Below the pieces are notes generated by a model. It made no database searches and was not told the origin of the DNA. It worked only from the letters and a program-made list of their open reading frames with translations. Source: a virus (lineage: Duplodnaviria > Heunggongvirae > Uroviricota > Caudoviricetes). Taken from it: 39,738 nt of DNA. The DNA lies in the IMG/VR virus record IMGVR_UViG_2529293069_000032; one strand, 5' to 3'. Of the stretch, positions 1,008-5,830 are shown piece after piece (the first letter of the stretch is position 1; each line of letters opens with the position of its first letter). The translations under genes were made by a program, and so were the position numbers.

Positions 1008-1355
1008 TTACTTATCACATAAATCAAATGCAGCCTTAGTGACATCCCCCAGACTCTTTTTTAACCCTGGGGCGGCATCATTATCTAGCCAAAATGGATT
1101 ATTGTTATCTAACGGTAACGCACCAAATGTTTTACCTTTTATTCGAGCCAAACCTGTAAGTGCATATAACTTATTATCGTCAAAATTCATCACATAAGGA
1201 TTACCATCAAGACACTGTAATTGAACCTCATCAGTATTAAATGGCCATACCCCATTGAAACTCTCACGTTCAATAGTTTTAAAAGGCATTGCGACGGCGG
1301 AAAAAGAAAACATAGATAAAAAAGTAACTAATAGTTGAACCTTTTTTACTTTCAT
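1008..1355 (-). CDS. Secreted periplasmic protein, YebY/DUF2511-like (cargo gene)
   Basis: 115 aa; N-terminal signal peptide (MKVKKVQLLVTFLSMFSFSAVA); W-x-FN-x-DEV-x-L-x-C-x-x-GN-x-YV pattern recalled from YebY family; AT-rich compared with phage core. Confidence 0.5.
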   Translation of the reverse strand: MKVKKVQLLVTFLSMFSFSAVAMPFKTIERESFNGVWPFNTDEVQLQCLDGNPYVMNFDDNKLYALTGLARIKGKTFGALPLDNNNPFWLDNDAAPGLKKSLGDVTKAAFDLCDK

Positions 1356-1384
1356 ATCATTACCTCAATTTAGCTCAAGTAAGA

Positions 1385-2035
1385 TTACAAATTAAAAAAC
1401 GCCCTAGAAATGACACCGCCTACCAAAACCCCTACGCAGATAAAGAATATTATTTCTTTTGGATAAAGTCGGATTAATTCTGAAGCACGAAGTCGGACTT
1501 CTGGTAAGGTCGAACTCTCTATGTGGCTTGATGCCGATTGTTGCTCTAACCACGACAATGCAGACTGTAACTGAGAACGAGTAAGATCGTTTAAACGTCC
1601 TGTACCGAAATTGATATGGCAATACCGCAGAAGTTTTTGTCGAAGTCCACAGTCTTCACTGTTACGTAGTAATAAACTTACAAGAGCCTTACAGGCATCA
1701 TGATCTTTACATCGCTCAAGCATTGCATGCAGAAAACTCTCCGCTGTTTTATATTGATTTACTGTCATATCATCAATACCAGCTACACCAATCTCCGCAT
1801 GTACTTTTTGCCAAATAATAAACGCTTCAGTATTGCTAGCTTCTGCAATAGCAGCAACCAAGCTATTTAGCTCCTTACGCTGAGCCTTAAGCAAAGGGCG
1901 ATCGTCATCATCATTATTCGAAGGGATTGCGATATTGACGGTATGAGAACCATCATATCGCTCTATCTGAATATTCTTTTCGTGAAAATCACGCCCAGCA
2001 ACGCGATTGTTTGAACCGTTTGAGTTGACGGCCAT
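1385..2035 (-). CDS. Hypothetical tail-anchored membrane protein (cargo, co-oriented with repressor)
   Basis: 216 aa; single C-terminal hydrophobic helix (IIFFICVGVLVGGVISRAFF); N-terminus NNRVAGRDF echoes the repressor C-terminus; 16 bp downstream of the repressor stop. Confidence 0.6.
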   Translation of the reverse strand: MAVNSNGSNNRVAGRDFHEKNIQIERYDGSHTVNIAIPSNNDDDDRPLLKAQRKELNSLVAAIAEASNTEAFIIWQKVHAEIGVAGIDDMTVNQYKTAESFLHAMLERCKDHDACKALVSLLLRNSEDCGLRQKLLRYCHINFGTGRLNDLTRSQLQSALSWLEQQSASSHIESSTLPEVRLRASELIRLYPKEIIFFICVGVLVGGVISRAFFNL

Positions 2036-2050
2036 GTCACCTCCCTACTA

Positions 2051-2455
2051 TCACCTACCCTTAGTTTCGTTATAGTCACGACCAGCGATACGGTTATTAC
2101 CACCAGAAATATTTAACTCACGTCCTGATGGCTGAGTTTCCTTTTCACTGATCGCACCTTTTAAAGCCCCAATCACCGCGTTTTTCACATCTAACGAAGC
2201 TGCTCGAAAGCGAGTAATCAATTCCTGCTCATCATCGTTATAAGTTTCAGGTGAGTGAATTCCCAACACAACATACTGAACATCAAGGCCAAAACGAGAC
2301 AGCGCTGCCAAATACGCAGCATCAGGAAAGCTATCTCCTTTCTCATATCTAAGCTGAGTTAGCTTTTTGACTCCACCAATGTCGCTCATGGCAACTTGAC
2401 TAAGTCCCAATCTTTCCCTTTCCTCACGCAACCGCCGACCAATATCATTTTTCAT
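2051..2455 (-). CDS. HTH (XRE-family) immunity repressor, P2 C functional analogue
   Basis: 134 aa; N-terminal helix-turn-helix (RLREERERLGLSQVAMSDIGGVKKLTQLRYEKG); divergent from the early operon across a 75-bp switch region. Confidence 0.75.
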   Translation of the reverse strand: MKNDIGRRLREERERLGLSQVAMSDIGGVKKLTQLRYEKGDSFPDAAYLAALSRFGLDVQYVVLGIHSPETYNDDEQELITRFRAASLDVKNAVIGALKGAISEKETQPSGRELNISGGNNRIAGRDYNETKGR

Positions 2456-2530
2456 ACAAAAACCTTGGCAGGTATCTTTTTTGATACCAAAATGATTTCA
2501 CGAGCTATTAGATGATCACAATATACCACT
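2456..2530. promoter_or_regulatory. Divergent lysis/lysogeny switch region (Pc/Pe promoters and operators)
   Basis: 75-bp AT-rich gap between the divergent repressor and early operon; exact operators not resolved by eye. Confidence 0.4.
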
Positions 2531-2737
2531 ATGAAACAAGTTCTTCACGATACCAGATCACGCATTCCGCGTAACACCGCCACAGGTCCAAGACTGGCAC
2601 TTCGGCTGTCCCTCGAGGAGCGAGCCGTCATTGATGAAATGGCAGCTAAAGAACAACGCTCATCCTCTAACATGGCGCGCATGATCTTCCTTCGCGGCCT
2701 AGAGCTAACCCAGAAAGAACAAAACAAATCTTCCTGA
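2531..2737 (+). CDS. Ribbon-helix-helix DNA-binding protein, first gene of early operon (Cox/Cro-like)
   Basis: 68 aa; RLALRLSLEERAVIDEMAAKE fits a beta-strand then helix RHH (Arc/CopG-like) pattern; position equals P2 cox / 186 apl. Confidence 0.55.
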   Translation: MKQVLHDTRSRIPRNTATGPRLALRLSLEERAVIDEMAAKEQRSSSNMARMIFLRGLELTQKEQNKSS

Positions 2738-2753: not shown

Positions 2754-2957
2754 ATGTCAGGTATAACCATCAATATCAATGTGAATGCCCCCTATGTATC
2801 CCTGCAGAAATATGCAGAGATAACAGGTATCCCTCTTAATACATGCAAAAAGATGTTGGCTGACGGTCGAATTATTATCCGCCCCAAACGCGCCAAAATG
2901 GAAAAGCCTGAAGTAAACCTTGTGGCGATGTTAAAAGACGCTTTGGCTAACAGCTAA
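2754..2957 (+). CDS. Small putative DNA-binding early protein
   Basis: 67 aa ORF; basic HTH-like segment (LQKYAEITGIPLNTCKKMLADGRI). Confidence 0.45.
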   Translation: MSGITININVNAPYVSLQKYAEITGIPLNTCKKMLADGRIIIRPKRAKMEKPEVNLVAMLKDALANS

Positions 2958-5599: not shown

Positions 5600-5830
5600 A
5601 TGGCAGACCGCAAACAGCACCGCGCTATCGCGGAGCGTCGTCACATCCAGACTGAAATCAACCGCAGACTTTCCCGCGCATCACGCGTCGCGCAAATCAT
5701 GCACATCAATATGCTGCATGAGCGCAGCCACGCACTATCAAACATTTATTCCGCCTCTGTTTTCAGCTATCTGGCGGATGATCTGCACGAGTTTCAACAG
5801 CTCATCCAGCAGCAAAACAAACTCCATTAA
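5600..5830 (+). CDS. Hypothetical protein
   Basis: 76 aa; AAAGAGG SD 7 nt upstream of ATG. Confidence 0.5.
   Translation: MADRKQHRAIAERRHIQTEINRRLSRASRVAQIMHINMLHERSHALSNIYSASVFSYLADDLHEFQQLIQQQNKLH

Follow-up and report, generated by a model that had tools for sequence, protein, structure and literature searches.

Amyloid signalling pairs are neighbouring genes whose products carry a matching motif, placed at the C-terminus of one protein and at the N-terminus of the other. They comprise fungal HET-s/NWD2, the bacterial Bell/NLR pairs of the classes BASS1-10 and Bab/Agp of Escherichia coli (BASS11), the last of these found, like the pair described below, in an E. coli prophage region. All were identified by the argument that we follow here, namely the matching of termini within gene pairs. 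Their motifs, of about 25 amino acids (aa), abound in G, N, Q and V, contain little K, P or L, and belong to many classes, each matched within its pair and attached to unrelated partner domains. The C-terminal motif is borne by a pore-forming or enzymatic death domain and the N-terminal one by an NLR, STAND or TPR sensor, and the genes lie in defence islands. Two other described systems are close to the locus in question: Flk, which acts on the flagellar export gate, and the lysogeny switches of P2 (C) and 186 (CI), where repressor and int form a leftward operon opposite a rightward one of the Cox type, and the operator is located at the early promoter. We analysed a stretch of 39,738 nucleotides from a virus of the Caudoviricetes (IMG/VR record IMGVR_UViG_2529293069_000032), hereafter the window. 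In it, a 134-aa XRE-type helix-turn-helix (HTH) protein, a predicted immunity-type repressor, is followed by an open reading frame (ORF) for a 216-aa protein, ORF216, and the tail of the former resembles the beginning of the latter.

Local alignment of the repressor motif LNISGGNNRIAGRDYNE with the ORF216 motif VNSNGSNNRVAGRDFHE gave a score of 62, as compared with 29.2 +/- 4.8 for 5000 shuffles, only one of which attained the same value (Gumbel p ~7e-5). The motif pattern was not found elsewhere in the six-frame translation of the window. In the coding DNA of the two motifs 29 of 48 nt are identical, and different codons are used at 6 of the 10 identical residues. A preliminary description of this DNA, made from its letters and predicted reading frames, had claimed that the motif is common to both proteins at the protein but not at the DNA level, and these values bear it out. 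Because of the codon differences, a recent DNA duplication at the junction was ruled out. An RNA-level reason for the repeat was likewise rejected, as the junction RNA folds no better than shuffled sequences (z = -0.23). The preliminary description had also made its proposal depend on conservation of the motif, and the motif proved to be conserved in homologues of both proteins. The repressor tail is kept as ..[IV]N[IV]SG.GNR[IV]AGRD[YF]NE.KK in enterobacterial homologues, even in those with 35-55% identity elsewhere, and among 19 homologues of ORF216 (58-84% identity) the motif residues S5, G7, N10, R11, G14, R15, D16 and E19 are invariant.

A degenerate second copy of the motif, DGSHTVNIAIP, was noted in residues 20-38 of ORF216 (window 1922-1978, minus strand). 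Many partner proteins (P0243, P0244 and P0248 among them) carry such a weaker copy about 10 residues past the first, with the overall pattern NRVAGRDF.E ... [IV]GRD[IFL]VNI..P. With two pseudo-repeats on one side of the pair and a single one on the other, the arrangement is reminiscent of HET-s-type motifs.

The likeness of the two termini recurs in other repressor-partner pairs, each time with a different sequence. The E. coli-type class pairs NRIAGRDYNE in the repressor tail with NRVAGRDFHE at the partner N-terminus. Further matched termini, given in the same order, are QIFNGDISGQFAGNQIIN / QEFNGTAQGQFSSRDIIN, KQTFHGSVGQSVAGNVTNKSGVTFNVG / SQDFHGDVGQAAAGDINNYGVSISL and QQFNGPVGSVTSGDVVN / QQFHGAVEQVAAGDIKN, those of Gilliamella (IRGEGQIAGGNIYT / NTAEQIAGRDIYN) and Pectobacterium (QIFNGDISGQFAGNQIINN / QEFNGTAQGQFSSRDIINI), and MQVFHQAPIGDIFGRDL / KQEFSGPVGDVAGRDII. 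Over a set of 109 distinct pairs (28 non-redundant), the mean alignment score was 47.1 for cognate and 28.6 for non-cognate combinations, and the observed mean was matched by 0 of 10000 permutations. A control with 723 unrelated ORF N-termini (8400 scores) had a mean of 16.8, a 99th percentile of 28 and a maximum of 39; 108 of the 109 pairs scored above this percentile and 98 of them above the maximum. Placement of the motif is terminal in both proteins, with a median of 4 residues after it in the repressor and 2 before it in the partner. The aligned stretch has a median length of 18 aa (range 4-30), and its composition is high in G (15.9%), V (11.3%), N (9.6%) and Q (7.1%) and low in L (1.0%), P (0.8%) and K (2.2%). 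Distinct classes occur within a single host genus, Pectobacterium (P0158/P0174 vs. P0173), which argues against a single host receptor. The idea of a degron read by the host, one of those put forward in the preliminary description, is for the same reason a poor fit: the classes diverge inside one host genus and yet stay matched in each pair.

Linkage of the two genes was found to be nearly constant. In the fetched loci, 205 of 213 complete Flk_N-type ORFs (relatives of ORF216, see below) have a repressor homologue ending at most 60 nt upstream, and the inspected exceptions were due to a contig edge or to one inserted gene, with the tail-bearing repressor still there. A repressor homologue was located upstream in all loci of the first two scans (9 genome loci and 80 from IMG/VR), nearly always a few bases away, and in most pairs the gap ranges from -4 to +18 nt. 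Viewed from the repressor side, relatives are encoded on at least 502 IMG/VR contigs, and across 39 distinct loci each tail-bearing repressor for which downstream sequence was available has a neighbour with a matching N-terminus. The tail-less repressor homologue P0219, from another E. coli P2-like prophage, has neighbours without the motif.

The matched pair recurs in several hundred contigs of two kinds of phages. P2-like prophages have the order repressor, partner, cargo and int. The distant repressor homologues of Gilliamella and Pectobacterium belong to prophages of the Mu-like kind, which encode a transposase and a MuB-like ATPase, and are directly followed by a 194-aa Flk_N tail-anchored protein. 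Matched pairs are also present in cultured transposable phages, namely Pseudomonas phage B3 (ORF18 and ORF20, ISVTGDGNRTAGRDFHE / IEVTGSNNIVAGRDFIE) and the Burkholderia phages BcepMu (gp17 and gp18) and KS10 (gp13, the repressor, and gp12; L304 2026-2559). The middle domain of the partner is Flk_N with a transmembrane (TM) segment in most loci, a zinc ribbon with a TM segment in L224, L265 and L269, and another type of membrane protein, including two-TM forms, in L222, L260, L266, L274 and L301. Since the motif is retained despite the swapped middle domains, a folded domain is not the expected receptor of the motif. A profile search of 1.84 billion representative proteins revealed 137 relatives of the ORF216 family; most of the short, phage-type ones begin with a G-rich motif of some class, and chromosomal Flk proteins do not. 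Literature searches of about 8 million open-access papers and preprints yielded no description of the repressor-partner pair. Judged by gene order and sequence conservation, the repressor and ORF216 are a conserved two-gene module, portable between P2-like and Mu-like phages. ORF216 had been presented as a cargo gene in the repressor-integrase operon. This is contradicted by its being a constant neighbour of the repressor family in both phage types; on these comparisons it is part of the switch and not cargo beside the repressor.

At the tail-less repressor locus (L220 3357-4132), the genes that separate the repressor from int encode a Cys-rich, zinc-ribbon-like protein of 117 aa and a tail-anchored coiled-coil protein of 140 aa. 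The latter has no motif. These phages may more generally place a small tail-anchored protein behind the repressor.

ORF216 consists of the N-terminal motif, a helical Flk_N domain and a C-terminal membrane anchor, and it matches phrog_5825 with E=8.5e-103. Its homologues, of about 209-216 aa, are widespread in Enterobacterales, and precomputed annotation places PF27202 (Flk_N) on nearly all of those listed, up to 98-100% identity. The match to the NCBIfam Flk model PRK10715 is partial (E=8e-16, Flk residues 20-149 of 339) and reaches 58.2 bits, against an equivalog cutoff of 353. The two proteins share the Flk_N domain and the topology with a single C-terminal anchor. In turn, Flk has about 330 aa (chromosomal Flk proteins about 320-430 aa), starts with MQP.SG and lacks the G-rich motif, while ORF216 is shorter, phage-borne and encoded beside a repressor. 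The profile matches many of the long Flk-type proteins in two stretches. In an AlphaFold2 model of ORF216 built with a 54-sequence alignment, the first 44 residues have no secondary structure and a predicted local distance difference test (pLDDT) score of 52-60, and neither motif docks on a folded domain in the models of ORF216 and of the repressor. The Flk_N domain itself is highly conserved, with many invariant residues. The protein had been predicted to be tail-anchored, and this was confirmed in that its sole hydrophobic segment lies at the extreme C-terminus (aa 195-213; the best 19-aa hydropathy window begins at aa 195) within a modelled helix of residues 192-215. By analogy with Flk, we infer that the bulk of ORF216 would be cytoplasmic, at the inner membrane face. 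In the anchor, G202 is invariant and G206 nearly so (window 1418-1432, minus strand), which gives a G-x3-G spacing; a G-x3-[GAS] pattern occurs within the final 32 residues of 21 of the 28 non-redundant partners and hints at helix-helix association in the membrane.

Structure searches with the ORF216 model (Foldseek) yielded no significant neighbour in PDB (best E=1.0) or BFVD (best E=0.014), with only local helical resemblances of 60-70 aa for the domain, and a family-profile sequence search of PDB gave no match. Neither ORF216 nor the DUF2511-like protein encoded next to it (see below) matched a PADLOC defence-system model. Weak Pfam matches of ORF216 to zf-P11 and ELYS, and of its relatives to GemA (below threshold), were taken as noise.

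As the termini are alike within a pair and different between pairs, whatever the fold of the partner, we inferred a direct pairing of peptides. That the repressor tail and the partner N-terminus bind each other, and thereby couple the repressor to a membrane partner, appears to us slightly more likely than not from these sequence comparisons. The pair suggests an undescribed way to couple a phage repressor to the cell membrane. It agrees with amyloid signalling pairs in the C-terminal and N-terminal placement of the motif on products of adjacent genes, in the motif composition and in the existence of many pair-matched classes with unrelated partner domains. It differs from them in that the C-terminal motif is attached to an XRE HTH repressor and the N-terminal one to a small membrane-anchored protein with Flk_N, zinc-ribbon or other domains, in that the motif is shorter (median 18 aa), and in its location in the immunity region of temperate phages. 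Since the position and composition of the motif fit and the domains that bear it do not, we say that the repressor-ORF216 pair may work like an amyloid signalling pair, and we do not file it as a BASS member.

In such a mechanism, like would pair with like, probably as stacked beta-strands, and the pairing may be templated and amyloid-like. It would tie the activity of the repressor to the state of the membrane partner. By the polarity of known motif pairs, sensing would fall to the membrane partner, with the repressor as its effector: when partner molecules cluster, they would capture or convert repressor tails, draw the repressor off its operator and favour derepression. This direction of signalling, from partner to repressor, is a guess by analogy. 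A stronger version for P2-like and Mu-like temperate phages of Proteobacteria, with amyloid-like self-templating, in which the motif of the clustered partner seeds the conversion of repressor tails and commits the prophage to induction as a prion-like lysis-lysogeny switch, seems to us rather unlikely. In that version the motif classes would act as private channels that prevent cross-talk of co-resident prophages.

Several points weigh against direct pairing as the basis of the switch. The main motif has a charged R-D pair and falls short of the 25 aa typical of BASS motifs, and the partner is devoid of an NTPase or any other recognisable sensor domain. KS10 gp12 is Flk_N-like and has a matched motif but no membrane segment, and thus represents a soluble variant; membrane tethering is therefore usual and not universal. 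The permutation test leaves relatedness partly uncontrolled, because the pairs are co-inherited, and within the large NR.AGRD class other partners often outscore the cognate one (whose rank goes up to 13 of 28), which means specificity by class and not by pair. A repressor that is always co-expressed with its own inactivator also needs a trigger. Finally, the P2-like O157 prophage Sp13 of the Sakai strain, which has an epsilon-like gene and a repressor without a peptidase motif, is inducible with mitomycin, an effect that the authors of that study ascribed to the P4 epsilon-like gene (PMC2669165). Sp13 was compared here by its published description. The two-gene module need not be the SOS route and may not be that of induction.

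Next in probability to direct pairing is an explanation in which a common third factor docks both motifs. This could be a phage antirepressor (the P4 epsilon-like "derepression protein") or a degron-reading protease or adaptor, and the membrane protein would set the threshold of induction by acting as decoy or competitor. The RefSeq annotation of the same prophage does include a "derepression protein" gene (L001 8600-8830, corresponding to about 5600-5830 of the window, plus strand), the Sp13 authors proposed such a factor for the mitomycin response despite the peptidase-less repressor, and both motifs are exposed, low-confidence termini, as is usual for degrons and docking peptides. Yet no third gene is common to the P2-like and Mu-like contexts, in which only the repressor and the partner are constant; a host factor would need to read very different classes within one genus; and the matching of termini inside each pair would be left unexplained. 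A common partner of both motifs, which the preliminary description had listed first, is possible and less economical than direct motif-to-motif binding, and we regard the third factor as unlikely.

Slightly less probable again is a signal in the reverse direction, of the toxin-antitoxin or abortive-infection type. ORF216 would then self-assemble through its motif and the G-x3-G helix and damage the membrane, and the repressor tail would cap it until the repressor is lost or titrated. Tight coupling of an XRE HTH protein to a small membrane protein encoded downstream is common in antitoxin-toxin systems, and the short intergenic gaps and the frequent G-x3-[GAS] pattern in the C-terminal segment of the partners are compatible with it. 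Killing by Bab/Agp is done by the membrane protein that bears the motif, and at a metagenomic locus (L222, 2614-3567) a match to the RexA family (PF15969) lies two genes past a two-TM partner, a possible link to abortive infection. Against this stand the lack of a PADLOC match for ORF216, the motif-bearing KS10 gp12 without a membrane segment, and the position of the HTH protein, which is that of an immunity repressor with an operator-like site in the early promoter. The strong conservation of the Flk_N domain, modelled at pLDDT 96-98, would also be odd for a mere spacer.

Binding of the repressor tail by the folded domain of the partner, whose own N-terminal copy would be an autoinhibitory pseudosubstrate, would likewise keep both peptides alike. 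The 60-70-aa helical unit of ORF216 weakly resembles modules by which phage regulators bind proteins, namely the C-terminal parts of ORF6C and Bro-N and the C-terminal domains of Sak and Red-beta, and a profile match to phrog_245 (Ant) has E=0.0045. These structural likenesses are, however, not significant in the Foldseek searches, AlphaFold leaves the N-terminal region undocked on the domain, and the matched motif is retained where the middle domain is an unrelated one (zinc ribbon, two-TM), so that we consider this explanation improbable. As for a functionless relic of an old gene fission, an idea also raised in the preliminary description, or of a local junction duplication, it is largely refuted and very improbable: the copies flank the gene boundary and ORF216 lies in the reading frame of the repressor after three stop codons, but no HTH-Flk_N fusion was found among the 137 family representatives, which leaves fission unsupported, motif residues are invariant in both families, codons differ as described, elsewhere the gap (8, 11 or -4 nt) breaks the shared frame, and a neutral relic would lose the match that is kept across divergent classes.

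The features of the locus are collected in Table 1. According to the preliminary description, repressor and int are separated by two additional genes of the same strand, and the coordinates agree with this. In the order repressor, ORF216, 115-aa ORF and integrase, the successive intergenic gaps are 15, 29 and 5 nt, and a scan of the minus strand from 2455 to 1 found no terminator-like site. Co-transcription from the repressor to int is plausible, given this absence and a spacing like that of translational coupling. The repressor gene ends in three in-frame stops in a row (TGA TAG TAG; window 2036-2053, minus strand), and ORF216 starts 15 nt after it in the same frame, behind a GGAGG Shine-Dalgarno sequence. 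In other loci the repressor-partner gap is mostly 9 nt, and also 8, 11 or -4 nt; a shared frame is thus not general.

Table 1. Coordinates of the genes, motifs and domains at the repressor-integrase locus of the window
Feature	Position	Strand	Basis
XRE-type HTH protein / predicted immunity-type repressor, 134 aa	2455-2051	-	ORF list
Repressor C-terminal motif LNISGGNNRIAGRDYNE, aa 114-130 of 134, followed only by TKGR	2066-2116	-	Alignment to ORF216 N-terminus
ORF216, 216 aa, repressor partner	2035-1385	-	ORF list
ORF216 N-terminal motif VNSNGSNNRVAGRDFHE, aa 3-19	1979-2029	-	Alignment to repressor tail
All-helical Flk_N domain, ORF216 aa 45-173	1517-1903	-	AlphaFold pLDDT 96-98, five helices
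Transmembrane tail anchor, ORF216 aa 192-215	1391-1462	-	Hydropathy and AlphaFold helix, pLDDT 94-97
DUF2511/YebY-like ORF, 115 aa	1355-1008	-	ORF list
Tyrosine integrase, 333 aa, final gene of the leftward operon	1002-1	-	Pfam Int_N E=5e-32, Phage_integrase E=2.5e-22
Perfect palindrome GGTATC-TTTTTT-GATACC (GGTATCTTTTTTGATACC), operator-like	2471-2488	.	Read from sequence
Arc-like early gene	2531-2737	+	phrog_3431, E=1e-28
Cox-like excisionase/repressor	2754-2957	+	phrog_575, E=1e-27; annotation of phage 520873

The repressor matches phrog_8, phrog_4 and phrog_3 (transcriptional regulator or repressor; E down to 2.6e-14), while its Pfam scores for HTH_31 and HTH_3 are under the gathering score. 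Its AlphaFold model has an HTH domain (aa 1-64, pLDDT ~90), helices at residues 74-103 and a tail (aa 105-134) with pLDDT <50. The Arc-like/Cox-like early operon runs away from the repressor gene in the opposite direction, and between them the palindrome fills the 17-nt spacer of a rightward early promoter with the -35 element TTGGCA (2465-2470) and the -10 element CAAAAT (2488-2493). From this position, the palindrome at 2471-2488 is likely the operator of the repressor. A layout of GGTA-N8-10-TACC and then GTCAAG (the complement of a -35) was found upstream of repressor homologues of P2-like and Mu-like phages, including BcepMu; it is seen at L023, L092, L094, L110, L133, L172, L182, L214, L218, L302 and L303; phage B3 has the variant GGTGC...GCACC at the same position. 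The layout is kept across genera with variation confined to the inner bases, which fits the nearly invariant recognition-helix region in the alignment of the repressor family. Such conservation raises the question of how these phages remain heteroimmune. In comparison with the P2 C and 186 CI switches, the locus has the same divergent operons and a predicted operator at the early promoter. It differs from them in its repressor, which belongs to another XRE family and has an additional tail, in the obligate partner gene before int and the Arc-like gene before Cox, and in the use of the repressor-partner pair by Mu-like phages too.

The third gene of the operon was described beforehand as encoding a protein with a signal peptide that resembles the YebY/DUF2511 family, and our results agree. 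The 115-aa ORF scores 28.4 bits against Pfam DUF2511 (PF10709; gathering score 21), and matches phrog_2950 (E=8.7e-40) and the YebY structure PDB 7n0j (E=0.0027). It retains W37, C48 and C113, the two cysteines forming the pair of the YebY disulfide, and begins with a signal-like segment (aa 1-22, ending in AVA), so export is predicted. Unlike yebY in its yobA-yebZ-yebY copper operon, the ORF is flanked by ORF216 and the integrase gene; the YebY paper also reports homologues in settings that have no relation to copper. Behind the partner, DUF2511 genes are confined to the near-identical O157-type group and to L003, L058 and L082; elsewhere the slot is taken by lipoproteins or by further small proteins of secreted or membrane type. 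For this gene the label of cargo fits, as the contents of the slot vary among loci: judged by sequence, it is a separate, probably periplasmic moron in a variable cargo slot behind the two-gene module.

In E. coli O157:H7, a prophage integrated next to yecA is 100% identical to the window region. Of 5426 complete E. coli genomes, 599 contain this region, and Escherichia phage 520873 (Peduoviridae, Xuanwuvirus) has 98% identity to it. In the record of this phage (NC_049344; L002 1039-3065) the integrase annotation is split into two fragments, and both ORF216 and the DUF2511 gene are broken and unannotated. These are likely sequencing or assembly errors, since the genes are intact in near-identical matches from E. 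coli genomes.

For annotation, the above means that ORF216 and its relatives should be called neither flagellar regulators nor morons. Repressors that have no LexA-type cleavage domain, like those of P2-like and Mu-like phages, raise the question of how a prophage senses the time of exit. If the proposed pairing is true, a conserved, co-diversifying peptide link between repressor and membrane protein would give the lysogeny switch a new input, and signalling by matched terminal motifs of the amyloid type would extend from cell-death effectors to a transcription factor. The proposal is directly testable in the matched pairs of B3, BcepMu and KS10 and in the E. coli O157 prophage family.

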